From positions 1-31,885 of IMG/VR virus record IMGVR_UViG_3300013002_000047: DNA of 31,885 nucleotides. One strand, given 5' to 3'. The notes under the pieces were generated by a model. That model did no database searches and was not told the origin of the DNA. It saw only the letters and a list, made by a program, of their open reading frames with translations. Positions 3,170 to 28,299 of this stretch are shown piece after piece. Every line of letters begins with the position of its first letter. Positions within the stretch are counted from its first letter, which is position 1. The DNA is from a virus. The position numbers and the translations under genes were made by a program.

Positions 3170-4795
3170 TCACGGTTTGTTTATATATAGGCCTAAGGCC
3201 TTTTTGACTGTAACTTGCGTCATGTTGTATTGTGCCTTGAACTTACGTTGGCTCAGCGTCTGTACGTCATTCTTAAGTTGCTCACGTTGCTCTTCTGATA
3301 GTGAGTTAATCATGAGCTGGACCTTACCACGGCCAACCCTTTTAGAACCATTCTCAGAGTTGATTGATTGGATATAAGGCTTGTAAAACAGGTCCTTGTA
3401 ATTTGGTAAGAATCCCAACTTCAAAGCTCTTCCAACTGGATATTTAGCAAATGCCCTGCGTAGTTGGTCTTCTGTGTACATCGCTGATGTGACATTATAA
3501 TCCTCAAGCACACGTTCATCTTCTGCCGGTAATTCAATCGTTCCAAAGATGTCCCCAAACAATCCGTAGACCTCTTCAAACGTCTTCTCTTCACGGAGCT
3601 CTAACATACGGTTGAATAATTCCTTTACAGCCATCTCTGACTTAAGGTGCATCTTAGCTTCACGCATCGAGGCTGGACGATTTAATAGCATCTTGCGGAA
3701 CTCATCCTTGTTACCTACCAGTTGCGCTAGAGCTGTGCCACGCGACATTGCGACGTATAGGTTATTATTTGTGTAATAAGATGTTGCCTTTTTACTGATT
3801 GGTTCATTTCCCAAGAACACCAACACAGAACCCTTATAAGTTGCCCCTTGCACTGTATGAGGCACTGCATATGCTGATAATTCAAGCTTCTTTAAATCAA
3901 TCCCCTTATCAAGCTCCTTAACAAACGGGAATACCTTCTTCAAAGATTCATAATCTCGATTTTCTGGATTAAGCCAAACCTTGCTATCGTCTCGAACAAA
4001 TGGGAAGTAGCCTAACGCATCGTCTCCAAACTCACCTAGGATAATGTCATTCAATACTTGTCCACGCTTGTGTGATAAAGCAACCATCAAACGATTGTTC
4101 TTAACAGCATCGATAACAACATCATGGTACACAACCCCTTCTGGCTCATCTGATTGAATATCAATGGCCTTATCGATAACTGTGTTGATGTATTCATCAT
4201 CATATCCGTTAGAGAATCCTTGTGATGCCAATCGGTAATTCTTGTTAAGAATCGTTAACGGGATTTGGGTGTCTTCAAGGTACCAAGACTTTGGAGCTGT
4301 CAAGAACTCAAAGTCAACGTTCTGGTAAGCTTCCGCTGTCCAATCCCATACAGGCTGGTCAACGGTTGCTGATAGAAGCAACTCAAGCACTGAGTGTCCG
4401 GCTGGGACGTTTAATTGCTTCAAATCCCCGACCAAAGTGATTACAGCTCCTTGAACGTGCTGTGAGCGATACATCAATGACGTAAAGTGTGTATCTGGGA
4501 ATTGAGAAGCTTCTTCGATGTAAATCCGGTCATAGGCTTCCGTGTATCCATACATAACCTTGATACGCTTGTACTTCAATTCCTTAAGAGCATTCAAGCG
4601 TTCTTCCGATGACTCAATACCCATAGCTGTATCAATCGTTGCCCTTAACGATTCTCTACTTCCGTGCGTCGGTGTTATGGCAATCACTTGGTGTCCCATC
4701 AACATATCGTCTACTGCCATTTGTACAAGCTTCGTGCTCTTTGCTGTTCCAGGTTGACCCAAGATGGCCCTAATCTTATTACTGTTTAAATTCAT
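3170..4795 (-). CDS. superfamily 1 helicase (RecD/viral-helicase-like P-loop NTPase)
   Basis: 541 aa. Walker A GQPGTAKST; Walker B IYIEEASQ; motif III LVGDLKQL; motif IV NKNYRLA; motif V TVQGATYKGSVLVF; motif VI LYVAMSRGT. Confidence 0.8.
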   Translation of the reverse strand: MNLNSNKIRAILGQPGTAKSTKLVQMAVDDMLMGHQVIAITPTHGSRESLRATIDTAMGIESSEERLNALKELKYKRIKVMYGYTEAYDRIYIEEASQFPDTHFTSLMYRSQHVQGAVITLVGDLKQLNVPAGHSVLELLLSATVDQPVWDWTAEAYQNVDFEFLTAPKSWYLEDTQIPLTILNKNYRLASQGFSNGYDDEYINTVIDKAIDIQSDEPEGVVYHDVVIDAVKNNRLMVALSHKRGQVLNDIILGEFGDDALGYFPFVRDDSKVWLNPENRDYESLKKVFPFVKELDKGIDLKKLELSAYAVPHTVQGATYKGSVLVFLGNEPISKKATSYYTNNNLYVAMSRGTALAQLVGNKDEFRKMLLNRPASMREAKMHLKSEMAVKELFNRMLELREEKTFEEVYGLFGDIFGTIELPAEDERVLEDYNVTSAMYTEDQLRRAFAKYPVGRALKLGFLPNYKDLFYKPYIQSINSENGSKRVGRGKVQLMINSLSEEQREQLKNDVQTLSQRKFKAQYNMTQVTVKKALGLYINKP

Positions 4796-4926
4796 CTTTA
4801 TTTCCTTCTCTTTCTGATTTCTGATTTGGGCTTATCACCCTCTACATATATAGTTCATTGCTCTTAGTTTATAGTCACGTTTTATGTTACGAGTTTGTTA
4901 CAAATCGAGACACGTATCTCCTCATC

Positions 4927-4935
4927 TGTTATAAT
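4927..4935 (+). promoter_or_regulatory. candidate extended -10 promoter (TGTTATAAT) facing the helicase promoter
   Basis: TGnTATAAT match; GAGACA lies 17 nt upstream. Would transcribe rightward into the AT-rich tract. Confidence 0.3.
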
Positions 4936-4970
4936 TGAAGAGACAAACTCTAAATTCCTTTGTTAATACA

Positions 4971-4979
4971 ATTATACCA
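4971..4979 (-). promoter_or_regulatory. candidate extended -10 promoter (TGGTATAAT) for the helicase operon
   Basis: The reverse complement of attatacca is TGGTATAAT, about 170 nt upstream of the helicase ATG. The -35 is weak. Confidence 0.35.
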
Positions 4980-5039
4980 CGTTCCTTTCTTTGGATGTGA
5001 GAACCTCAATCTTATGACTTGACATTCTGATTGAAGTGT

Positions 5040-5160
5040 GATTTTTATTACTACACTTATTAATTTACCTATAACTTTTTAAAAAGTGCCATTTTGGCCC
5101 TATTTCGTCTAACCAATAATTGATTTGAAGTTAAATTTTATATAATTTCTTGTAAACCCT
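5040..5160. other. AT-rich tract (candidate DNA-unwinding element / origin flank)
   Basis: Hand counts of the two 60-nt lines 5041-5100 and 5101-5160 give 15/60 and 12/60 G+C. No ORF. Lies upstream of the helicase gene. Confidence 0.35.
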
Positions 5161-5245
5161 TGATACATAAGTTTTCTTGGGTGTTTTGGCATTCCAACAC
5201 AGGGTAATTCCAAGATTCTTAAGTGATAATTTAACGACTTGTCTT

Positions 5246-5270
5246 ATAAGGGGACATACCTTATTTTTAT
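5246..5270 (+). terminator. weak plus-strand intrinsic terminator
   Basis: ATAAGG ggacata CCTTAT followed by TTTTAT. Confidence 0.3.
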
Positions 5271-5457
5271 CACTTTTCCGTAAGTTATCTTCATAAGTCC
5301 TTCCCAAAGAACAATCATCATACCCATAGCTGAATAAGGTTTAATTCTGAAGAAGCGGTTTTCTTCTGAAGGATTATAAGCTTATTACAGGACCTCTGGG
5401 GTCTATCCCAGTTTGGGTGAAGACAACTTGTTGTCGAGGGCTGAATAAGCCCTGTAC

Positions 5458-5747
5458 CTTAGGTTAACTGAAGCAACTTAGGGTATTCCCAAAGTATTCC
5501 CTATGATACAGGGCAATGTTGCCCTCTCTCCAGTCGCAAAGCTCCTTACGATTCACCTCCAATTCTTTCTGATAAAGAAGCAATCCATTGATAATCCCTT
5601 GTTCATCAGGAAGAAAAAACCACTTCCTTTCAGAACAATTTCTTATCATGCTACCAACTTAGGGTCTTTTTTCAGCTTTATTACTTAAGGAAGTACACAG
5701 GGTTAACCTAAGTCCCTCAAACAGCCTAAGCCACTTATCCCCCTAAG
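5458..5747. repeat. Cluster of six CTTAGG/CCTAAG hexamers (three forward, three reverse) around a central CTTAAG palindrome
   Basis: CTTAGG at 5458, 5477 and 5658. CTTAAG at 5684. CCTAAG at 5707, 5725 and 5742 (17-18 bp spacing). A variant lies at 5819. The chance expectation for this span is far below one. Confidence 0.85.
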
Positions 5748-5770
5748 TCATTCCCCCATCGTTAGAATGC

Positions 5771-5834
5771 CAAAAACCCCCTAGCAAACCAGCCGAGGAA
5801 TCCACCAAGGTCAAGAATGCTAAGGGGTCTTTTT
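5771..5834. terminator. hairpin flanked by an A-run and a T-run (possible bidirectional terminator)
   Basis: CCCCCTAGC (5777-5785) pairs with GCTAAGGGG (5819-5827) with one mismatch. It is preceded by caaaaa and followed by tcttttt. Confidence 0.4.
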
Positions 5835-5843
5835 GTGCACCAA

Positions 5844-5957
5844 TCCTATCAGGCGTATGTCAGGAATGCCAATCTCCTATGTTCCCCACTTACGGGGACG
5901 CTCAATGCTCAGTTGCTTATGGTACGCCTCCTATCACAGCCACTGAGTATCCTATCA
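5844..5957. repeat. TCCTATCA iterons (three exact copies plus one TCCTATGT variant)
   Basis: Copies at 5844, 5929 and 5950 (exact) and 5875 (variant). Spacings are 31, 54 and 21 bp, close to integral helical turns. Confidence 0.8.
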
Positions 5958-6027
5958 TGGGCATTTTGCCCAGCTTATGTGGCTTATGGGCGGTCACCTA
6001 ACGGAGCGTTATATTTTACCGATTGAA

Positions 6028-6043
6028 AATAACACAAATGTTA
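6028..6043. promoter_or_regulatory. operator-like site AATAACACAAATGTTA (palindromic core TAACA-N4-TGTTA), copy 1
   Basis: Exact 16-mer also at 6690-6705. Extra TAACA/TGTTA half-sites at 6079, 6096 and 6110. Confidence 0.55.
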
Positions 6044-6065
6044 CTGTTAACGCCTGATATATCAA
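6038..6065 (-). promoter_or_regulatory. candidate minus-strand promoter TTGATA-N16-TAACAT overlapping operator copy 1
   Basis: -35 is the reverse complement of 6060-6065; -10 is the reverse complement of 6038-6043. Would transcribe into the GC-richer ORF-free block. Confidence 0.4.
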
Positions 6066-6181
6066 GCTTTCTCATGAATAACAATACGGAATTTTTGTTA
6101 ATATTTTTGTAACAATAGGTCTCCGTTCAATGTTTCCGGTACATCCAGGTGTCAAGCCCTAGTTTTTAGGGAATTATCCCC

Positions 6182-6210
6182 TTGAAAACAAAATGAAAGC
6201 TTGTCATAAT
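6182..6210 (+). promoter_or_regulatory. plus-strand promoter TTGAAA-N17-CATAAT with TG extension
   Basis: TTGAAA at 6182-6187; TGt-CATAAT at 6202-6210. Lies 70 nt upstream of a plus-strand ATG that has an RBS. Confidence 0.5.
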
Positions 6211-6280
6211 AAGGTTTGTCAGATTAATCAGCAAGCTTCTGGTGAATGCACGTCCTGTCTTCAAGAAAGGATGTTAATTT

Positions 6281-6319
6281 ATGGCAAAACAAAAACAAAA
6301 AGGCGTTAAGTTACCCTAG
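6281..6319 (+). CDS. 12-aa Lys-rich leader ORF (MAKQKQKGVKLP)
   Basis: GAAAGGA lies 9 nt upstream of the ATG. Ends in TAG TGA. The stop overlaps the GTG of the next ORF. Confidence 0.3.
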   Translation: MAKQKQKGVKLP

Positions 6320-6489
6320 TGATTATCGCCATAATAGTGTTTATGATTCATCGAGTTGAAGAATTATCTAGGCTCGTGAGTTTAATTCCAGCACCATATC
6401 GAGATGCTTGGGTTCAGGAAGCGTTTAATTACGCATCCCGTTACCTACCATCTGAATTTGTGGCCTGGTGGTACAGAATACACAAGTAG
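6319..6489 (+). CDS. hypothetical 56-aa membrane protein, possibly translationally coupled to the leader ORF
   Basis: The GTG at 6319 overlaps the TAG of the leader (uaGUG). Product: VIIAIIVFMIHRVEELSRLVSLIPAPYRDAWVQEAFNYASRYLPSEFVAWWYRIHK. It has no RBS of its own. Confidence 0.35.
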   Translation: MIIAIIVFMIHRVEELSRLVSLIPAPYRDAWVQEAFNYASRYLPSEFVAWWYRIHK

Positions 6490-6512
6490 ACTGTGCAACT
6501 GCCATATGCAGA

Positions 6513-6560
6513 CAAAAAAATACACCCAGGATATAAACTTGGCCGTTTATCCTTAGGTGT
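6513..6560 (-). terminator. minus-strand intrinsic terminator ending the 10142-6818 operon
   Basis: On the minus strand: ACACCTAAGGATA...TATCCTGGGTGT followed by ATTTTTTTGT. Confidence 0.6.
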
Positions 6561-6638
6561 CATATGTTATGCACGTGGCATTTATCTATATTTTTAAGTG
6601 TTATAAGACGTGTATATCGCCAGAATTAATTCTGACTT

Positions 6639-6676
6639 GAACCCTAGGAATTGCAGTTCTTAGGGTTCTTATTTTT
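6639..6676 (+). terminator. plus-strand intrinsic terminator of the small plus-strand cassette
   Basis: GAACCCTAGGAA ttgcag TTCTTAGGGTTC (one mismatch) followed by ttattttt. Confidence 0.65.
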
Positions 6677-6689
6677 CTTATGCATTAAT

Positions 6690-6705
6690 AATAACACAAA
6701 TGTTA
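6690..6705. promoter_or_regulatory. operator-like site AATAACACAAATGTTA, copy 2
   Basis: Exact repeat of 6028-6043, directly after the plus-strand terminator. Confidence 0.55.
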
Positions 6706-6817
6706 TATCATACAACAGACTTTGAAAGATTATGACACTTTACAATAGATTACTGCTTGTTGATGGCCTCTACGATACTTTGTGTAGCATCAGCAGTTTC
6801 TCCATCCTCAGTTTCAC

Positions 6818-8539
6818 TCAGAATGACTTAGGAATCCGAAACTTTTGATTCTCAATCCATTCTCTATCGGTATTAGAGATATGTTCACCAACATTTACCT
6901 CCCATAATTCTATGGTTTCTAATACCGCTTCGAAGTTATGTAACCTTTTATAATTCATAGCCATACGCTTGTATAACTTACTGTGTTGGGTAAATCCATC
7001 ACACAACAAGTCATTAAGGATTTTATTTGAGTATACAAAATCCTTTTCATCAATAGCAATACGATTTGCTTTAACAAACTTCTTTATAAATCTATTTTTC
7101 CTCTGTTCATCTGTTTCAACCACCCTAACCTTAGGCATTGCCCATCTCATTTTAAGTGTCGCATGAGCTTTAAAATGAGTTCCAAGTGTCATTCTTTCAA
7201 TCTCATAAATACGTTGCTCATACAACACATCATTTTCAGCTGAATGTTGTGCTAAATTTAATACACCAACATCTTCTTTGTAATACGCAATATAATCATC
7301 AACTCTATGATGACTCCATCCTTTATTTGCAAAATACTTACCAATAATCATAGTATCCCCAAAGGGATTAGTTAAGTCTCCTAACTCATGTTTATGCATG
7401 TTAAATCTTAAAAACGTCAAGTCAAAACCAATATTATGACCTATTAAAACATCATTACCAATAAATGAAATAAACCCCCGTAGCAACAGTTCTATGTCTA
7501 ATCCACTGTCAATATCTTCTTGTTGGATAGGTGAATTTTCTTTTAGAAATTTAGATAGGTATGATTTATTATTAAATCCCTGGAACTTGTCAATTATTGC
7601 TCCATCTCTAACTTTAACTGCAGCAATCTGAACAATTAAATCTTCCTCATAATCAAATCCAGTTGTTTCAACGTCTACAACTACATATTCATCGAAGAAT
7701 TCAATTCCTGTACGCTCATAATTCAAGTAAAAATTCCGATATTCAGGGTCATCAATTCCCGAAGGAACTGGCATATCTGCTGTTCCAGATTCACGCCTAA
7801 ACTCATCTATTTCATCAAGTAAAGTAGTATTATTTGTATCATTTTCAATTGAATCTGATGTTGGAGGCATATCTTCATGAATAACTTCTAGAGTAACTAA
7901 TTCATCAGGTTCACCTAAATATTCATCAACATCTTCAATCATTACTTCCTCATGAATGGGCTCTTTGCCTGATTCAATATTTGAAGTTTCTTGAGGTAAA
8001 ACAGTAGGAATTTCAACTAATTCTCTTTCTGCTTCAGCTTCATCTGACTCATAAATATTTTCCGTATGATTAACAACAGCATCTAACGCTTCATCATTGG
8101 TAAATTCATCTCTGTGACGCAACGAGTAAATGAAGGTGCGTATCATAAAAATGATAGCCCAAACAATCCATCCAAACACACCCAGTAACATGGGAACAGG
8201 CACTGTAATACCCAGAAGGAAGATAGGAATAACGCTGATAAACATCCACTTCATTTCCTTTTGATACTTAGCTGGCCAGTGACGATAGCTCATCTTTGAC
8301 TCAGGTACATTCTCAAGGCGCTCTGTGAGGCTTCTATGTGGCTTCTGAATCTTCTTAGCACCCTTCTCATCGACCCAGCTAAGACCGGTCCCAGGTATGC
8401 CCACAGTGGTTCTAGTGCGACCATTGGCCGTCTTAGTGTAGCGTGCCCCTTTAGTCCCCACAGACCAGCCAACACCCGACTTAGAGGCGTTAATTCTGAC
8501 CGGTCCCATCTTAATTGATTTGCGGTATCTCATTCCCAT
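6818..8539 (-). CDS. DUF4236-like N-terminal domain, transmembrane segment and DEDDh (DnaQ-like) 3'-5' exonuclease fusion protein
   Basis: 573 aa. N-terminus MGMRYRKSIKMGPVRINASKSGVGWSVGTKG. Hydrophobic stretch FISVIPIFLLGITVPVPMLLGVFGWIVWAIIFMI. Acidic linker. Exo motifs VVDVETTG, GHNIGFDLTFL and HSAENDV. Confidence 0.75.
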   Translation of the reverse strand: MGMRYRKSIKMGPVRINASKSGVGWSVGTKGARYTKTANGRTRTTVGIPGTGLSWVDEKGAKKIQKPHRSLTERLENVPESKMSYRHWPAKYQKEMKWMFISVIPIFLLGITVPVPMLLGVFGWIVWAIIFMIRTFIYSLRHRDEFTNDEALDAVVNHTENIYESDEAEAERELVEIPTVLPQETSNIESGKEPIHEEVMIEDVDEYLGEPDELVTLEVIHEDMPPTSDSIENDTNNTTLLDEIDEFRRESGTADMPVPSGIDDPEYRNFYLNYERTGIEFFDEYVVVDVETTGFDYEEDLIVQIAAVKVRDGAIIDKFQGFNNKSYLSKFLKENSPIQQEDIDSGLDIELLLRGFISFIGNDVLIGHNIGFDLTFLRFNMHKHELGDLTNPFGDTMIIGKYFANKGWSHHRVDDYIAYYKEDVGVLNLAQHSAENDVLYEQRIYEIERMTLGTHFKAHATLKMRWAMPKVRVVETDEQRKNRFIKKFVKANRIAIDEKDFVYSNKILNDLLCDGFTQHSKLYKRMAMNYKRLHNFEAVLETIELWEVNVGEHISNTDREWIENQKFRIPKSF

Positions 8540-8558: not shown

Positions 8559-8630
8559 CTATTTTAACAATCGTGACCAAAAACCTTGCTTAGGAGCCTT
8601 CTCTGTGGCTGGTGTCTCCCCTGTACGTTC
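8559..8630. repeat. about 70-bp direct repeat, copy 1 (paired with 9588-9656)
   Basis: Exact 23-mer gctggtgtctcccctgtacgttc at 8608-8630 and 9634-9656, plus a similar ccaRaaMccttgctta block. Confidence 0.85.
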
Positions 8631-8801
8631 TACAACCCTAACTTGCTCAACTACACTGCCGTCTTCAAGTTCAACCTTGGTAGTCGTGGTTGTGACTACC
8701 TTTTCAGTCATCGAATTTGTTACTTGTTTACTTTGGAATACTTCGAGAGCAACAGGAATAATCAGCAACTCACCAAGCTTTGATAACAAGGCAATTATCA
8801 T
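8559..8801 (-). CDS. hypothetical 80-aa protein with a hydrophobic N-terminus and a GETPA...KQGFWSRLLK tail
   Basis: ATGA overlap with the upstream ORF. The C-terminal tail is shared with the 9588-10142 product. Confidence 0.6.
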   Translation of the reverse strand: MIIALLSKLGELLIIPVALEVFQSKQVTNSMTEKVVTTTTTKVELEDGSVVEQVRVVERTGETPATEKAPKQGFWSRLLK

Positions 8802-9587: not shown

Positions 9588-9656
9588 TTACTTAAACAGT
9601 TTACTCCAGAACCCTTGCTTATGGTTGTTATCAGCTGGTGTCTCCCCTGTACGTTC
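9588..9656. repeat. about 70-bp direct repeat, copy 2 (paired with 8559-8630)
   Basis: See copy 1. Confidence 0.85.
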
Positions 9657-10142
9657 ACCCTGCAATACGCTCTCTTCAATCTGCTTTGTGGCCTGAGCTT
9701 GAAGACGCTGGCTCTGGTCTGCTAGTTGCGCAAACTTATCGGCATAGGTCCTAACATCCTCCAGAGCTGAGATGTATTTCTCATTGAGCGCATCATGGTC
9801 CTGAGACAGCTTCTCAACTTGTTCCTTAAGTTCATCGTTGGCGTCTTGTATCATAGACCGTTCACTCTTAAGCACCTCAGCTTCTTTGGTGATACGTGTA
9901 TTCTCTTCCTTTAAACGTTCGATTTCTGCCTGAACACTTGCCAATTCCTTCAGTCGTAAAGCGTTCCCTGATACAGCACCACTACTCTGGTCAATCGTCA
10001 ACTTTTGGTAGTCCTCATCAGAAATACCTGCATCCGCTAAGTCATCGATGTTGATTCCCAATCGGTCTGCACGCCTGTATAGAGTGGCCCTGGTAATGCC
10101 AATGTCCGTAGCAAGCTTTGCTTTTGAATCAAAGTGTTTCAT
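9588..10142 (-). CDS. HTH DNA-binding protein with a long coiled coil and a C-terminal amphipathic tail
   Basis: 184 aa. N-terminal KLATDIGITRATLYRRADRLGI helix-turn-helix. Heptad-rich middle. Tail GETPADNNHKQGFWSKLFK. GGAGG RBS. Confidence 0.75.
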   Translation of the reverse strand: MKHFDSKAKLATDIGITRATLYRRADRLGINIDDLADAGISDEDYQKLTIDQSSGAVSGNALRLKELASVQAEIERLKEENTRITKEAEVLKSERSMIQDANDELKEQVEKLSQDHDALNEKYISALEDVRTYADKFAQLADQSQRLQAQATKQIEESVLQGERTGETPADNNHKQGFWSKLFK

Positions 10143-10210
10143 GGTGTACCTCCGTATAATCCATAGTTCAGCTATTTACTTACATGATACCACGCAGTAC
10201 GAACCGCGAT

Positions 10211-10323
10211 ACGATACAAATCAGACGATAGGGGAATCTTTATAAAAGAATGGTTGTTCACTTATACGTATCAAGGCCTGTATCGTCATAACAACTGAAT
10301 AGGGGTCTGTTTTACGATACAAA
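10211..10323. promoter_or_regulatory. ACGATACAAA direct repeats plus an inverted GTATCGT upstream of the HTH gene (candidate operators)
   Basis: ACGATACAAA at 10211 and 10314. GTATCGT at 10280. All lie in the 5' leader/promoter region of 9588-10142. Confidence 0.3.
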
Positions 10324-10355
10324 AAAGACATCCCAAGATGGTGCTCTGGAATGTC
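10319..10355 (-). terminator. minus-strand intrinsic terminator closing the ORF-free block
   Basis: On the minus strand: GACATTCCAGAG cacca TCTTGGGATGTC (with G-U pairs) followed by TTTTTTGT. Confidence 0.55.
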
Positions 10356-10358
10356 CTA

Positions 10359-11298
10359 AAAGATTACGCTTGATTTCAGCAAAGTCATTATATCCACAAA
10401 GGTCCATATAAAGCCAGCATCACGTATACCAATCAAAGGTTACATAATCTTGATTATACTGAGTTGCCCAATTACCAAGGGCTCAAGGTGGATTGCTCAA
10501 TCAGCCAATTTCACAAAGTCATATAAGTCCCTCTGGGGCATTTCACAAGCGCCATAGGTGGTCAAATTTCACAAAGTAGACCACTGATACATAATAGGCT
10601 GTGGTATCACTGGCTATCGCATCCAGTGAACCTAAGAGGCAACCAAACGCTATCCACCACGCACGCTGGACAAGTTCGATAATGTGAAGCCGATAAGGTT
10701 GGAATCACGCACGATAGGTAACAACCGGCACTTAGTAGCCTCACCGGCAGGCCAGCCACCTGATTGATTCCATCAATAAAAGCTCTTGACGTGCAAGACC
10801 CAATCAGCCACTTTGAGCGCTTGTCATGCTCCGGAGTATACAGTTGTCCCCTGAGTAGGAATCACAGAACAAATAAATGCTCTATGATGTTGGACAACTG
10901 CTCTAAAGCCACTTCTCACGAAGCCACGACCATCGAAACTCTGCTTGTTGTTAATCAAATCCTCACGCCTCTGATACTCCTACGTGTAATGGTTTCCCAT
11001 CGTGGACATGCCTTTCTGTACCTCTGCCCTCAAACGCCCTATATGAGCCTCTGAGAGCCTTTTAGCCACCCTGTCTGTTACCGGTAAGTAACTTCTGTTT
11101 TTACCATGCGATTTCTCGTTTAGGCTTTGCCATTTGGCTTGGAAGCATCAAAGACCGCTTACGCTCCCCGCACCCCTTAGATGTGAAGCAGTCACACCTT
11201 TGGGCATCTATTTGAATAATCGGGGTTGATGTTCCCCGCCATTGCTGGATAACCTGCTAACGGGGGTCTAACCCGTTGCCAAATGAACCTATAAGTAC
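10359..11298 (-). ncRNA. about 0.94-kb ORF-free, GC-richer, hairpin-dense block bounded by two minus-strand terminators (candidate large structured RNA or origin; strand inferred)
   Basis: No ORF with an RBS in any frame. Hand counts of lines 10681 and 10741 give 29/60 and 31/60 G+C. Many GC stems, including CAGTTGTCC/GGACAACTG and two GNRA-loop hairpins. Confidence 0.3.
10508..10576. repeat. three direct copies of ATTTCACAA(A)G
   Basis: Copies start at 10508, 10540 and 10566. The 12-mer TTTCACAAAGTC recurs inverted at 31218-31229. Confidence 0.8.
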
Positions 11299-11353
11299 AA
11301 AAAAAAGATTCCATACATTACGTGCCTTCATCTAACACGCTCTGTACGGAATC
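11299..11353 (-). terminator. minus-strand intrinsic terminator
   Basis: On the minus strand: GATTCCGTAC ... GTATGGAATC followed by TTTTTTTTGTAC. Confidence 0.6.
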
Positions 11354-11401
11354 CTTGAGTAATCTCCTGACCTTTTACAGTCCTGTTTGGAGCCTTACCT
11401 G

Positions 11402-11429
11402 TTGATTACACTTCTTGATATGGTATAAT
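11402..11429 (+). promoter_or_regulatory. plus-strand promoter TTGATT-N16-TATAAT with TG extension
   Basis: TTGATT at 11402-11407; TGgTATAAT at 11421-11429. Confidence 0.55.
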
Positions 11430-11534
11430 GATTATACGAAATCAGGAAGTTAAAAACGTGCCATATGAGTTCTGGTCATTTGGCACAGCTCGTAACTGAA
11501 GTTGGTAGCTTCTGTCACTTGCCTTTACTGATAT

Positions 11535-11563
11535 TTAATTGATAGACTAAGTTTATCAATTAA
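11535..11563. promoter_or_regulatory. perfect 10-bp inverted repeat TTAATTGATA-N9-TATCAATTAA (operator or RNA hairpin)
   Basis: Read directly from the sequence. Overlaps the -10 region of the minus-strand TTGACA promoter. Confidence 0.6.
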
Positions 11564-11579
11564 TCCGGCGTTTTGTCAA
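11550..11579 (-). promoter_or_regulatory. minus-strand promoter TTGACA-N18-TAAACT
   Basis: The consensus -35 is the reverse complement of 11574-11579. Would yield an RNA of about 250 nt ending at terminator 11299-11353, antisense to the 5' part of the plus-strand RNA. Confidence 0.4.
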
Positions 11580-11656
11580 GATAACCCCTTGGGCTATCAA
11601 GGTTTAAGCGCATACACAGCATATTTCTACTCCATAGAATTGCTAAACATACTGAA

Positions 11657-11694
11657 GCTTGTTGTTTGTCCTCCAAGACACAACAGGCTTTTTT
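11657..11694 (+). terminator. plus-strand intrinsic terminator
   Basis: GCTTGTTGT ... ACAACAGGC (9 bp including one G-U pair) followed by TTTTTT. Confidence 0.65.
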
Positions 11695-11796
11695 ATTACC
11701 CTAAAAACACTCCCTGACAGCGTTTCTGTGTAACAAAGTGGACCAAATACCACTAAGTAATGAACTTTTTGGACCTCTGAGAGCAATTCTTATACA

Positions 11797-11854
11797 CAAA
11801 AAAAGCCCCCTGACCGAGCATAGGACCGTTAAATCCTAAGCCAATCAGAGGGCT
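11797..11854 (-). terminator. intrinsic terminator after the endolysin gene
   Basis: On the minus strand: AGCCCTCTGA, a 31-nt loop, TCAGGGGGCT, then TTTTTTTGTG. Confidence 0.65.
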
Positions 11855-11859
11855 TTATC

Positions 11860-12960
11860 TTACTTCTTTAGCAATTCTCCGGCGTTATACCAGACCATGC
11901 CATAGCTACCTTCAACGATTCCAGCACCGTTTGAAGCGCCATCATAGGCATCAATCGTACCATTATCATATCCAGCCATAAACTTCACTGTGTCACCCAC
12001 CTTAGTTGGCGCAACATTTCCACGTGTCACGTTGTCTAATATGGCCAAAGGAATACCGTTCATTGTACAATCAACATCCTTACCACCGGCCATATCATAG
12101 TTGATAGCTTGCCACATGCCGTTTACATAGGCAATCTTGTCCACCTTGAACGTGCCATAGGCTGTGAACCTATCACCGGCGTTCTTGAATTGGTCAATGG
12201 CGCTTACCTTAGCAGGCTTAGCTGGCTCCACAACAGGGTCTGACTTATCATCTGAGTTAACCACTGGTGTTTGACCAGACGTGAAGAAATTATCATACAG
12301 CTGGTTCACATCGAACACACCATAAGAGCTACGGAACGTTGCTGAAGAGCTCCATTGCCAAGCGTGCTCAGTTGAGTAGTAATTTTGCGTTGACGTAGGC
12401 ACATATGGGTATGACGCAATCCAGGCCTTCTCACCAGCTGGCGTCACATCCATATGAGAGCCCATTGTGTACGATGTTGAGCGATACCCACCAACACGGG
12501 ATACCTCGTTCTCAAAGGCAGTTGCTACGGCTTGCATGTTTGCTCCCATTGCCATTTGCGCTGGTTCTTCAATATCAGCTACCAACACAGCACCGACTGT
12601 CAACCCGTCAGCTTGCGCCATTGATACAGCATATTGTGCTTCTGCAATCGCACCAGCCACCGTTGTTGCGTGGAGGTAGTGATAACCGTTCACATAGATG
12701 CCAGCCTGTTGAGCTGAGGCGATGTTACCCTTGGCCGTCCAGTCATGATAGGTGGTACCCTCGGAAATCTTGGTCACCATGGCTTTGACACCATAGGTAT
12801 TCCGCATATCTGTCCACTCAGGGGCCGACATAGCGCCATTGTGATTTGATACATCGACCATGTCAGTTCGTGGAGTGTCCGCATGAGCCACCGTTTGATA
12901 GCCGGCCGTCAAAAATACCGCTCCAGCAATTGCCAGGGCGGTTCTAAGAATTTTATTCAT
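11860..12960 (-). CDS. endolysin: GH25 muramidase with an N-terminal Sec-type signal peptide and a C-terminal SH3b-like wall-binding region
   Basis: 366 aa. Signal-like MNKILRTALAIAGAVFLTAGYQTVAHA-DTP. GH25 motifs VDVSNHNG and VLVADIEE. Sits at the end of the lysis module. Confidence 0.85.
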   Translation of the reverse strand: MNKILRTALAIAGAVFLTAGYQTVAHADTPRTDMVDVSNHNGAMSAPEWTDMRNTYGVKAMVTKISEGTTYHDWTAKGNIASAQQAGIYVNGYHYLHATTVAGAIAEAQYAVSMAQADGLTVGAVLVADIEEPAQMAMGANMQAVATAFENEVSRVGGYRSTSYTMGSHMDVTPAGEKAWIASYPYVPTSTQNYYSTEHAWQWSSSATFRSSYGVFDVNQLYDNFFTSGQTPVVNSDDKSDPVVEPAKPAKVSAIDQFKNAGDRFTAYGTFKVDKIAYVNGMWQAINYDMAGGKDVDCTMNGIPLAILDNVTRGNVAPTKVGDTVKFMAGYDNGTIDAYDGASNGAGIVEGSYGMVWYNAGELLKK

Positions 12961-16927: not shown

Positions 16928-17662
16928 TTATAGTGTCCTCCATCTTGGCTCTATCGTTGCATTACCACTGCTGACCCAAAGGGTGTTGTTACCAGGCTTC
17001 AACGTTGGGAACGGCCCAACAGCCATCTTAGCGTTTTCGTTAATCATGACACCATTGTTAACCCGCCACACGTTCTGCATAGCGCTGTCCAACTCGATTG
17101 AACCAGTAACGTTCGTGAAGTTGTACTCGACTCCGTTTATCCTTAATATCACGTTATTATCACCGATAATCTTGATGTATGGTTTGGCCACATAATTGGT
17201 TGGATTAACCAGTGTTAATGTGGTACGGGTAATCGTAGCTGGTGCTTGTGCTGGTGCCACATAGCGATATGGTGCTGAAGACAATGTAATGGTTAACTCA
17301 CGGTAACTGTCCGAGTAGGTTGGGCGTGCAATTGTACCCGTGGATTGCCTGATGACTTGATACGTGTAATCAGGGTCAGAATACATTTGAAAATCAATGT
17401 ACTTGCCTGTGTCCAATGCAGATAAGAACTTTTGAATGTTGCTATCTGCCTGTTTACCCTCGAAACCAATAATCAATTGAATGTCTCTGTTGTTATAAGC
17501 ACCATCGTCAAACAAAATAGCCCTATCGATGCCGACAGGACTAGTATTCAGCGTTGTTTTACGCTCTGGCACTGTGATTGTTGGATAATTCAATATCCTT
17601 GCGTCAAGTTGGTCACTCGTTAATTGGTGACCTAATACGAAACTGCCTCTGTTCAATTTCAC
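16928..17662 (-). CDS. distal tail protein (Dit)
   Basis: Positioned between the tape measure and Tal genes. AGGAGG at 17666-17671 favours a GTG (17662) or TTG (17656) start over the track ATG at 17731. Confidence 0.7.
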   Translation of the reverse strand: MKLNRGSFVLGHQLTSDQLDARILNYPTITVPERKTTLNTSPVGIDRAILFDDGAYNNRDIQLIIGFEGKQADSNIQKFLSALDTGKYIDFQMYSDPDYTYQVIRQSTGTIARPTYSDSYRELTITLSSAPYRYVAPAQAPATITRTTLTLVNPTNYVAKPYIKIIGDNNVILRINGVEYNFTNVTGSIELDSAMQNVWRVNNGVMINENAKMAVGPFPTLKPGNNTLWVSSGNATIEPRWRTL

Positions 17663-28023: not shown

Positions 28024-28299
28024 CTATTTCTTGTAAACATCACCACGCTTGGCAACTTGCAGAACTAATACAGTTAACATCTCATCTCTGATGTCTGCGA
28101 TGATTCTATAACCACCAACTCGGTATCTCCAAAGGGTCTTAAAGTTACCCTTTAAAGCCTTCCCTTGTAGTCTAGGGTCAGCTGTATTCTGTATGTTCTC
28201 ATCAAGCCACTTCAAAACTCTAATTTGAACTGGCTTATCCAGCTTCTTAAAGTTTTTTAAGGCCTTCTCGTCAAATTGCCATTGAAACATTTTATTCAC
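28024..28299 (-). CDS. RelE/ParE-superfamily toxin
   Basis: 91 aa. The C-terminal WRYRVGGYRIIADIRDEMLTVLVLQVAKRGDVY pattern is typical of RelE/ParE toxins. Overlaps the antitoxin gene by 8 nt. Confidence 0.85.
   Translation of the reverse strand: MNKMFQWQFDEKALKNFKKLDKPVQIRVLKWLDENIQNTADPRLQGKALKGNFKTLWRYRVGGYRIIADIRDEMLTVLVLQVAKRGDVYKK

Follow-up and report, generated by a model that had tools for sequence, protein, structure and literature searches.

ColE1/pMB1 plasmids encode no initiator protein of their own: a long folded sense RNA, the pre-primer RNA II, runs towards the origin, and a short antisense RNA, RNA I, acts against the 5' end of that transcript through loops that set incompatibility. 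In ColE1 the sense RNA stays at the origin as a persistent hybrid, where RNase H cuts it and Pol I extends it. We know of no earlier ColE1 counterpart outside the Proteobacteria. In pT181 and in the Inc18 plasmids pIP501 and pAMbeta1, an antisense RNA is directed against the leader of an essential replication transcript, an intrinsic terminator stands in that leader downstream of the antisense target, a rep ORF follows the attenuator, and the antisense RNA abolishes an alternative antiterminator (preemptor) fold; in Inc18 a gene for a small HTH protein (CopR, CopF) is linked nearby. GOLLD and ROOL are large RNAs (several hundred nucleotides) with elaborate structure and no ORFs, located on mobile elements of Lactobacillales. 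Among parABS cluster-A mycobacteriophages 95% are without repA, and Wetzel et al. (2020, PMC7157519) describe the non-RepA prophage origin as RNA-based, with replicon function shown by experiment.

The locus compared here with these systems lies in a 31,885-nucleotide viral sequence (IMG/VR record IMGVR_UViG_3300013002_000047), referred to in its whole length as the window. An earlier note, made from the letters alone, had singled out positions 10359-11298 as an ORF-free, G+C-rich, hairpin-dense block delimited by two minus-strand terminators. Both terminators are real, but the block does not have the limits of the conserved unit. That unit is larger and runs from about 10591 past the 11299-11353 hairpin to about 11706, where plasmid homology stops, and 10359-10590 belongs to a distinct element, the A block. 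Judged by its sequence features and relatives, the segment 10591-11706 with its neighbors to 9588 is probably a replication and maintenance module of the plasmid type, with RNA in place of a Rep protein, which would make the phage a phage-plasmid. A more specific and more tentative proposal, which falls somewhat short of an even chance, is a family of protein-free, RNA-primed theta replicons in Bacillota. In such a family one ornate RNA of ~1 kb would act as the primer of replication, and a kissing-loop antisense RNA would hold it in check; the family would have split into several incompatibility types, and siphophages would have become phage-plasmids by taking up the module in their integrase slot. 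The features on which these proposals draw are as follows.

9588-10142, minus strand: module-linked HTH gene, encoding a protein of 184 aa (N-terminal HTH, coiled coil, amphipathic tail)
10319-10355, minus strand: terminator T (hairpin and U6, z -2.6), between the RNA body and the HTH gene that lies downstream
10420-10585, unstranded: A block, conserved and non-coding, with ATTTCACAAR repeats at 10508, 10540 and 10566
10591-11298, minus strand: structured core (~700 nt) of the predicted long RNA (RNA-L), marked by strand-specific folding, covariation and G-U asymmetry
10611-10668, unstranded: invariant box of 58 nt at the 3' end of the RNA body, TGGCTATCGCA...AACGCT...ACGCNCGCTG
11101-11251, minus strand: 5' domain of the core, 151 nt and 9 helices, captured by covariance model R1
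about 11135-11170: supported helix GGGGAGCG/UGCUUCC
11222-11239: supported helix CGGGG/CCCCG
11299-11353, minus strand: leader hairpin (terminator or attenuator), 14 bp and -27 kcal/mol with U8 after it, separating the antisense target from the RNA body
11402-11429, plus strand: P(+), predicted promoter of antisense RNA-S, TTGATT-16-TATAAT with TG
11437-11530, plus strand: predicted antisense RNA-S, ~90-100 nt (fold z -4.06), complementary to the RNA-L 5' end
11535-11563, unstranded: I2, a 14-bp inverted repeat (93% complementary) over the P(-) -10 hexamer
11550-11579, minus strand: P(-), predicted promoter of RNA-L, TTGACA-18-TAAACT with TG before the -10 (10/12 matches)
11654-11697, plus strand: intrinsic terminator (hairpin and U6, z -4.19) that bounds the conserved module on the right

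The block is indeed free of credible ORFs. Within 10359-11298 the longest minus-strand ORF is 50 aa, and the plus strand has a single ORF of note, at 10764-11054 (96 aa, TTG start). With the lysin gene on one side and the early genes on the other, the block occupies the slot where, as the earlier note had pointed out, a temperate relative would have attP and an integrase. Pfam and PHROG scans detected no integrase in the window and no Rep, primase or integrase among the unnamed ORFs, and the annotation of the relative NZ_CP020929 lists no integrase either; a ParE-family toxin gene is also present in the window. An occupied integrase slot with a 96-aa frame in it might suggest a decayed gene for an integrase or a Rep protein, but this idea is scarcely credible. 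Substitutions relative to the plasmid homologue fall 95/92/109 by position modulo 3, which amounts to no codon periodicity, nearly all indels are frequent small ones of 1-2 nt, identity of ~77% extends over ~1 kb across many elements without a shared ORF, and the helices covary (see below). The frameshifted gene remnant against which the earlier note had set its proposal is therefore not what the block contains.

G+C content is 46.4% in the block and 48.6% in its core, above the 42.7% of the window as had been observed, yet the lysin gene reaches 48.9%, so the block lies within the coding range and not beyond it. Searches for tRNAs and for tandem repeats were negative, the sole repeats being three TTCACAA copies in the A block, and tRNA-like, tandem-repeat and iteron explanations of the block were rejected on these grounds.

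The large structured RNA that the earlier note had put forward as a candidate is supported, for the minus strand, by several lines of evidence, and the hairpin density proves both real and strand-specific. The minus strand of 10600-11300 has a minimum free energy of -245.5, compared with -215.3 +/- 6.9 for shuffled sequences (z -4.35), whereas the plus strand gives z +0.05; independent dinucleotide shuffles agree (z -3.8 and +0.4, respectively). When a structure derived from type 1, one of several sequence types among the relatives, is placed on an alignment of 15 sequences, 79% of cells are paired, as against ~40% when partners are slid, and 49 pairs have changed on both sides, as against 15-29 in the slid controls. 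The core alignment contains 394 G-U cells and 129 A-C cells. A full-length MAFFT alignment of types 1 and 2 gave only a sparse RNAalifold consensus because its divergent parts are misaligned, and it was replaced by the type-1-derived structure and by covariance-model alignment.

Covariation is strong in the 5' domain. Model R1, trained on type 1 only, matches type 2 at E ~1e-11 and the M2 phage-plasmid at 2e-8. In the alignment obtained with this model, pairing holds for 95% of cells, both-side changes occur in 17 of 35 pairs (1-5 in slid controls), and the covariation score is 0.303 compared with at most 0.058 in controls. R1 searches did not detect types 3 and 4, and the homology of their cores therefore rests only on shared architecture and the invariant box. 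Among individual helices, the 9-bp pairing CAGTTGTCC/GGACAACTG noticed by eye is real, although its first arm lies at 10841-10849 and not at 10846-10854; the second sequence type has CAGTTCACCCATAG/CTATGGGTGAACTG in its place. The two GNRA-loop hairpins, with GAAA and GUGA loops, are likewise present on the minus strand, and their stems covary (AUGG/CCAU, GUCG/CGGC, AGCGG/CCGCU). No promoter was found for the core apart from read-through from P(-).

In size and in host clade this RNA recalls GOLLD and ROOL, to which the earlier note had tentatively likened it, and like them it is ORF-free, highly structured, several hundred nucleotides long and carried by mobile elements of lactic acid bacteria. 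That suggestion was not borne out. A cmscan search with 4,227 Rfam families was negative at gathering score for the window as a whole, and relaxation to E <= 10 on 10100-11900 brought up only five matches, all of chance level and to unrelated families, with GOLLD, ROOL, HEARO and raiA absent on either strand; no threshold tried produced a covariance-model match to GOLLD or ROOL. A group II intron finds no support from cmscan, which gave neither an Intron_gpII nor a group-II-D1D4 match, or from the block, which holds no ORF; such introns usually carry one for a reverse transcriptase. The Rfam RNAI family and the Rfam countertranscript families of plasmids were also without a match. Membership in a known RNA family, whether one of these ornate classes, a group II intron or a plasmid countertranscript family, can thus be given almost no weight. 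Furthermore, GOLLD and ROOL differ from the Weissella RNA in that the latter has a dedicated antisense-RNA control region and is found on elements for which no Rep gene is annotated.

The relatives of the block bear on its function. In 10 Weissella plasmids, non-coding DNA is ~77% identical to the block over ~1,060 nt, another 4 plasmids match a second core type, and overall the block is present in at least 13 Weissella plasmids; a blastn search against 50,697 phage records gave no match, and all occurrences so far come from this one genus. None of the 8 block-carrying records with full gene tables that were inspected has an annotated Rep gene, and none of the 8 is assigned a MOB-suite replicon type. 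PLSDB gene tables leave out pseudogenes, so that a small unrecognized initiator may still be present, for example among the conserved ORFs of 59, 96 and 119 aa in type-1 plasmids, which are, at the same time, missing from the phage and from pWcMBF8-1. In an all-versus-all ORF comparison no protein was common to the phage, the type-1 plasmids and one type-2 plasmid, and the block was their sole common element. Two closed circular "plasmids" that carry the block, NZ_CP020929 (strain M2, 31,447 bp) and NZ_CP049098 (strain N17, 31,622 bp), are whole phages syntenic with the window. The hallmark of a phage-plasmid, a complete phage as a closed circular replicon, is observed in these two relatives only.

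Upstream of the core is a region whose anatomy, as read from sequence, is typical of plasmid copy control. P(-) would start RNA-L at about 11543; its position is kept in type-1 relatives, and type 2 has TGTGTTATAAT at the aligned position. The overlapping inverted repeat I2, kept in type-1 relatives as TTAATTGAT...ATCAATTAA, is a candidate operator. On the opposite strand, P(+) has equivalents with 11/12 matches in type 2 (L015, 4067-4095) and in type 3 (L017, 1305-1334). The predicted RNA-S folds into two stem-loops (11458-11486 and 11488-11522). Its 3' end is uncertain: the second hairpin and the U-run after it form a clear terminator in types 2 and 3, giving an RNA of ~85-90 nt, and in the window RNA-S may extend to 11697, where the terminator at 11654-11697 may form the 3' end of a long antisense form. 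The stem of that terminator shows compensatory changes between the window (CTTGTTGT/ACAACAGG) and the plasmids (CGGTTAT/ATAACTG). RNA-S stems are conserved and the loops hypervariable, with loop 2 flipping between TTGGCG and CGCCAA; in strain N17 the two coexisting replicons differ in both loops.

The hairpin at 11353-11299 separates the antisense target from the RNA body, and type 2 has at this position a hairpin and U-run of unrelated sequence (e.g., AACGGGCTGGAAT...ATTCCAGCCCGTT). A consensus scanner missed both this terminator and that at 10355-10319 because their loops exceed 8 nt. In the plasmids, a segment homologous to terminator T directly follows the invariant box. Minimum free energy folds of nascent and of target-blocked leaders all retain the leader terminator, and no antiterminator is visible in these purely thermodynamic predictions. 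A type I toxin-antitoxin system encoding a small toxin peptide was also considered and rejected. The leader ORFs are only 9 and 24 aa long, and neither can be conserved, because the type 2 terminator sequence at this place is unrelated.

This arrangement combines traits of two kinds of plasmid. Like ColE1/pMB1, the module appears to do without a plasmid-encoded initiator (no annotated Rep in 8/8 gene tables), is predicted to produce a long folded sense RNA directed towards an origin, and has, to judge from sequence, a short antisense RNA against the sense-RNA 5' end with loops that would set incompatibility. It differs in its Gram-positive host, in a sense RNA about twice as long, and in the hairpin and U8 terminator between the antisense target and the RNA body. 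Given no homology to RNA I or RNA II and no other sequence relation, the Weissella module is an analogue of ColE1 and not a member of its family. With pT181 and Inc18 it would share an antisense RNA against the leader of an essential replication transcript and an intrinsic terminator in that leader downstream of the antisense target (here the 14-bp hairpin and U8), and with Inc18 a small HTH protein gene linked nearby. In those plasmids, however, the attenuator precedes a rep ORF, whereas here it precedes a 700-nt non-coding RNA, and thermodynamic folding of the Weissella leader yielded no mutually exclusive antiterminator fold.

The sharing of the block with plasmids that lack an annotated Rep, together with a terminator inside the unit after the sense/antisense region, makes replication and maintenance a likelier function than that of an independent "ornate RNA". 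It is conceivable, although unlikely, that the RNA is a large structured non-coding RNA with another job (a new ornate RNA, a decoy, an anti-defense RNA or a regulator), gated by the antisense RNA and the leader terminator, and that the plasmids and the phage replicate by other means. Its size, strong structure and covariation would suit such a role, as would its presence on Lactobacillales mobile elements, a trait of GOLLD and ROOL as well, and the true origin could then lie in a second ORF-free region of the window, 4796-6817 (~2 kb), which also has high folding potential. This region, in which cmscan against Rfam at E <= 1 (4700-6900) found chance-level matches only, has no counterpart in the block-carrying plasmids, whereas the block is the only element common to the phage and to type-1 and type-2 plasmids. 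Moreover, the block matches no Rfam family, and antisense loops that differ between coexisting replicons are a hallmark of copy and incompatibility control.

If the block is a replication module, as is preferred here, the invariant box is a candidate for the origin or for the site of RNA-to-DNA transition. It is found in all sequence types, including 19 metagenome loci, and it also occurs outside the complete module as truncated copies beside parA and cps genes (L025, L029, pCBA3612-02). RNAalifold on 25 sequences yielded essentially no consensus structure for the box and no significant known motif was found in it; it is therefore treated as a sequence motif. The best DnaA box candidate, CTATCCACC, has 2 mismatches to TTATCCACA and was discarded, since chance alone is estimated to yield 4-5 sites of this quality over the two strands of 1.7 kb. 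These properties of the box, and its truncated copies elsewhere, count against the replication module, as do the single genus of all occurrences, the leader terminator that forms with or without a blocked target, and the failure to find a separate promoter for the core.

A box conserved across all types as sequence and not as structure, with a GATAGC motif repeated within it, could also point to an origin that acts as DNA. Host initiators would then recognize the box, and the transcripts would only activate or throttle initiation and would not serve as primer, a scheme to which the lack of a visible switch in the leader also lends itself. Such an origin is improbable, somewhat more so than an RNA with a non-replication role. 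The box has neither iterons nor significant DnaA boxes, and ~700 nt of strand-specific, covarying RNA between promoter and box would be hard to explain as a by-product.

Two further elements accompany the module. The A block, which holds the window's only three exact ATTTCACAAR copies, is kept in the plasmids and the M2 phage-plasmid, where its placement with respect to the core differs, and in relatives always lies near the HTH gene; it is a candidate binding site or centromere. The 184-aa protein has a weak HTH match and coiled-coil matches. Its homologues occur solely on block-carrying Weissella plasmids and phage-plasmids, and a tblastn search of the phage collection gave no match.

In the proposed mechanism of RNA-primed replication, P(-) at 11579-11550 would start RNA-L, a minus-strand transcript of ~0.95-1.2 kb. 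Its first ~100 nt would be the target of the fully complementary ~90-nt RNA-S, transcribed from the convergent promoter at 11402-11429. The two RNA-S stem-loops would make first contact through their loops, so that the loops would set specificity, i.e., incompatibility. The hairpin and U8 at 11353-11299 would halt most RNA-L transcripts, and RNA-S may govern how many read through. Transcripts that pass the leader terminator would fold into the ~700-nt core and reach the invariant box at 10668-10611. There, RNA-L would either stay hybridized to its template or be processed and would prime the leading strand by means of host enzymes, in the manner of ColE1. The HTH/coiled-coil protein and the TTCACAA repeats would be accessories in regulation or in tethering and partition. 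Placed in the integrase slot, the module would allow the phage to be kept as a low-copy circular plasmid prophage.

The nearest phage parallel is the non-RepA origin of mycobacteriophages (PMC7157519). Both cases involve a temperate siphophage without an integrase that is kept as a plasmid (for the phage studied here, by deduction from its relatives). In the mycobacteriophages, too, an ORF-free region, transcribed there, occupies the integrase slot downstream of the virion genes, exists as diverged sequence variants and is often beside parA; parA likewise directly adjoins the block in Weissella plasmids of types 2 and 4. The hosts differ, being Actinobacteria in one case and Bacillota in the other, and no sequence similarity is detectable. 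The mycobacteriophage region is ~600 bp long and transcribed away from parA, and the accessible text describes no antisense RNA, leader terminator or covarying structure for it. Replicon function is experimental there and deduced for the Weissella block, which, unlike the mycobacteriophage origins, is also the apparent replicon of ordinary plasmids.

If this proposal is correct, it would explain how Weissella plasmids without a recognizable Rep replicate, among them bacteriocin, EPS, copper-resistance and conjugative plasmids to which MOB-suite assigns no type, and how integrase-less Weissella siphophages persist as plasmids. The module offers a tractable model in which a large RNA with covariation-supported structure is joined to a clear antisense control region and to natural specificity variants. 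It may also be of use as a compact protein-free replicon, with a set of compatible variants, for Weissella vectors and as a marker for such plasmids and phage-plasmids in genome and metagenome data. RNA-based initiation, demonstrated in enterobacteria with ColE1 and in prophages of mycobacteriophages, would then extend to the lactic acid bacteria.

The window, ~32 kb, is the genome of a siphophage and has all its genes on the minus strand. In the phage collection the closest counterpart is WCP30, a Weissella phage with which it shares just ~70% identity, over the lysin-holin-tail region only. No integrase was found in the window by Pfam and PHROG scans of unnamed ORFs. The non-coding block lies in the following setting:

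11860-12960: GH25 endolysin gene, one flank of the block
11855-11800: strong terminator of the endolysin gene
11353-11299, minus strand: hairpin terminator (14-bp stem, -27 kcal/mol, then U8)
10355-10319, minus strand: hairpin terminator, then U6
9588-10142, minus strand: small helix-turn-helix (HTH) gene, the other flank

The earlier note described 10359-11298 as an ORF-free, G+C-rich, hairpin-dense block between two terminators. The block has no credible ORF (minus-strand maximum 50 aa; the sole sizeable plus-strand ORF is a 96-aa TTG ORF), and both delimiting terminators are genuine hairpins with U-runs. The block (46.4% G+C) and its core (48.6%) are richer than the window average (42.7%) but not than the coding range (lysin gene, 48.9%). 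All of the named stems exist, although one first arm was misplaced by ~5 nt and lies at 10841-10849. Hairpin density is borne out, on one strand only: for 10600-11300 the minus-strand fold has -245.5 kcal/mol versus -215.3 +/- 6.9 in dinucleotide-shuffled sequences (z -4.35), whereas the plus strand equals its shuffles (z +0.05), and a separate shuffle set repeats this asymmetry (z -3.8 and +0.4). A decayed gene is ruled out, as mismatches with a plasmid homologue are spread evenly over codon positions (95/92/109) and indels are nearly all 1-2 nt. An Rfam cmscan with 4,227 families returned nothing at gathering score across the window and no relevant family at E <= 10 in 10100-11900, thereby excluding the GOLLD and ROOL membership that had been considered, as well as group II introns and plasmid countertranscript families.

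The 1.7-kb interval holding the block has no match among 50,697 phage records and matches 10 Weissella plasmids. Non-coding plasmid DNA of ~1,060 nt is collinear with window 10645-11706 at ~77% identity. The A block (10420-10585) and the segment around the U6 terminator (10279-10382) match separate plasmid segments, which lie on either side of a gene for an HTH/coiled-coil protein of 154-176 aa, a homologue of phage gene 9588-10142. Because of this partition, the natural unit is ~10591 to 11706, extending beyond the 11299-11353 hairpin, rather than the block first delimited. Two of the matching "plasmids" are entire phages, syntenic with the window and without an annotated integrase:

NZ_CP020929: W. 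cibaria M2, 31,447 bp, closed circle, 81% identical over structural genes
NZ_CP049098: W. confusa N17 p1, 31,622 bp, closed circle

Wider searches with the M2 version, a W. hellenica version and the invariant motif as queries added further plasmids, two W. cibaria KACC 11862 contigs and 19 metagenome loci. Between its portal and terminase genes the window encodes a ParE/RelE-family toxin (28024-28299, minus strand; Pfam E 2.6e-13), and at the matching position NZ_CP020929 is annotated with a RelE/RelB pair. Addiction modules of this kind suit an element living as a plasmid.

Further support for a folded RNA comes from comparison of two of the diverged sequence types of the block, types 1 and 2. 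A consensus structure predicted from nine type-1 sequences was projected on an alignment of 15 sequences belonging to these two types, where 79% of cells pair versus ~40% with partners slid, and 49 pairs are changed on both sides versus 15-29 in slid controls (by cells, 143 versus 43-63). G-U cells exceed A-C cells (394 versus 129), a count biased by prediction on the minus strand; the unbiased z-score asymmetry agrees in direction. Covariance model R1, trained on type 1 only and covering the first 151 nt of the RNA body (window 11251-11101), picks up type-2 plasmids (E ~1e-11) and also the M2 phage-plasmid (E 2e-8). In the R1 alignment, which is fitted to the model and so favours pairing, 95% of cells pair. 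Even with this fitting, double changes far exceed those of the slid controls (17/35 pairs versus 1-5), and the covariation score is 0.303 versus 0.058 or less. One stem changes from CGGGG/CCCCG to GGCGG/CCGCC and CGGAG/CUCCG, and that of a GAAA-loop hairpin from AUGG/CCAU to GUCG/CGGC and AGCGG/CCGCU. The block is very probably a conserved structured-RNA module common to plasmids and phage-plasmids.

The family is modular, combining exchangeable sequence types with one constant part:

10611-10668: invariant box TGGCTATCGCA...AACGCT...ACGCNCGCTG, present with ~100 nt beside it in all members

The core (~460 nt) and control region occur as at least three or four sequence types, mutually beyond BLAST alignment, and in both type 1 and type 2 the spacing from box to leader U-run is steady at ~685-710 nt. 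R1 fails to detect type 3, whose core (locus L017, 470-1230) folds better than shuffled sequence on either strand (z -3.5 and -3.65), versus one strand only for the window's type-1 core. No consensus structure was found for the box, which is treated as a sequence signal. Partial copies, consisting of the box and ~100-200 nt only, lie between parA and capsule (cpsB) genes (L025 1924-2222; L029 1874-2370; NZ_CP041195 about 17100-17200), and plasmid pCBA3612-02 has a partial copy of this kind besides a full type-2 block.

Upstream of the core, two convergent promoters are predicted:

11299-11706: control region
11579-11550, minus strand: predicted promoter TTGACA-18-TAAACT with upstream TG
11402-11429, plus strand: predicted promoter TTGATT-16-TATAAT

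The predicted plus-strand RNA, RNA-S, folds into two stem-loops. In types 2 and 3 its promoter equivalents score 11/12 and its second hairpin is an unmistakable terminator, giving an RNA of ~85-90 nt that ends at the start of the predicted long minus-strand RNA, RNA-L; RNA-S as predicted is thus fully complementary to the RNA-L 5' end. The RNA-L leader (fold z -5.59) has a hairpin and U8 downstream, and at that position type 2 also has a hairpin with U-run, unrelated in sequence. No alternative leader fold linking antisense binding to termination was found. Among type-1 relatives the RNA-S stems are conserved, with a hypervariable loop 1 and a loop 2 that alternates between GGAA-TTGGCG-TTCC and GGAA-CGCCAA-TTCC, so that loop 2 appears to have been inverted with its stem retained. 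Loop 2 (window 11503-11509, and the aligned position in L001, L002, L003, L007 and L036) can be the exact reverse complement between close relatives. In strain N17 a phage-plasmid coexists with a 17-kb plasmid that shares its block type, and the two differ in exactly the RNA-S loops (CTGCTT and CGCCAA versus TCGTG and TTGGCG), a pattern that would be expected of kissing-loop incompatibility determinants.

Full gene tables were read for eight records that carry the block (10 to 34 kb), among them the bacteriocin plasmid pWcMBF8-1 and one conjugative plasmid. No Rep is annotated in any of the eight, MOB-suite assigned none of them a replicon type, and Pfam and PHROG scans of unnamed ORFs found no Rep, primase or integrase. 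In an all-against-all ORF comparison the phage, type-1 plasmids and a type-2 plasmid have zero proteins in common, and the block is their sole common element. By elimination, it is the best candidate for a shared replication and maintenance function. A run of small ORFs (59, 96 and 119 aa) without Pfam match is kept among type-1 plasmids (L003 2201-3068; L001 1573-2438; NZ_CP041195 5516-5982) and is missing from the phage and pWcMBF8-1; those of 59 and 96 aa occur also in one type-2 plasmid.

Homologues of the HTH/coiled-coil protein occur only on block-carrying Weissella elements. The A block, which holds the window's only exact ATTTCACAAR copies (n=3), keeps near this gene in relatives although its place relative to the core varies. 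Type-2 and type-4 plasmids lack the gene and have parA directly adjoining the invariant box instead, which suggests that either ParAB or the HTH protein can serve as the maintenance partner. The protein ends in ...ERTGETPADNNHKQGFWSKLFK, and its plasmid homologue in KRGWLTRLFG. We take this amphipathic tail to resemble the MinD membrane-targeting helix (KKGFLKRLFGG), which suggests by analogy that the protein may be a DNA-membrane tether. An 80-aa ORF two genes downstream (8559-8801, minus strand) has a near-identical end, ...ERTGETPATEKAPKQGFWSRLLK.

A second ORF-free stretch of ~2 kb (4796-6817; longest ORF 69 aa) lies between the AAA-ATPase and DUF4236/RNase T genes and has no plasmid or Rfam match. 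Both strands of 5471-6815 fold much better than shuffles (z -3.4 to -5.8), and the stretch could be a lytic origin or a site of more RNAs. The adjacent 573-aa protein (6818-8539, minus strand) joins an N-terminal DUF4236, a predicted membrane segment and an RNase T/DnaQ-type exonuclease domain; the DUF4236 protein of NZ_CP020929 is far shorter (220 aa).

The anatomy of the block matches that of an RNA-based replicon that lacks Rep and has its copy number under antisense control, with ColE1 as the textbook analogue, and on balance we favour the block being the replicon. More tentatively, the RNA itself might act as primer for DNA synthesis, at the invariant box or close to it. The main rivals, both clearly less likely than the replicon reading, are a large RNA serving some other role and, at slightly lower probability, a DNA-level origin with purely regulatory transcripts. 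The nearest biological precedent, an experimental one, is the parABS cluster-A mycobacteriophages: according to PMC7157519, repA is missing in 95% of them, and in those a ~600-bp transcribed non-coding region occupying the integrase slot is both necessary and sufficient for replication as a plasmid. No prior description of the block element was found in the literature searched, a scope without the pWcMBF8-1 paper. As RNA-based replication with antisense control is already known, the element is best filed as new in its host group, in its unrelated and larger RNA, and in being shared by ordinary plasmids and phages.
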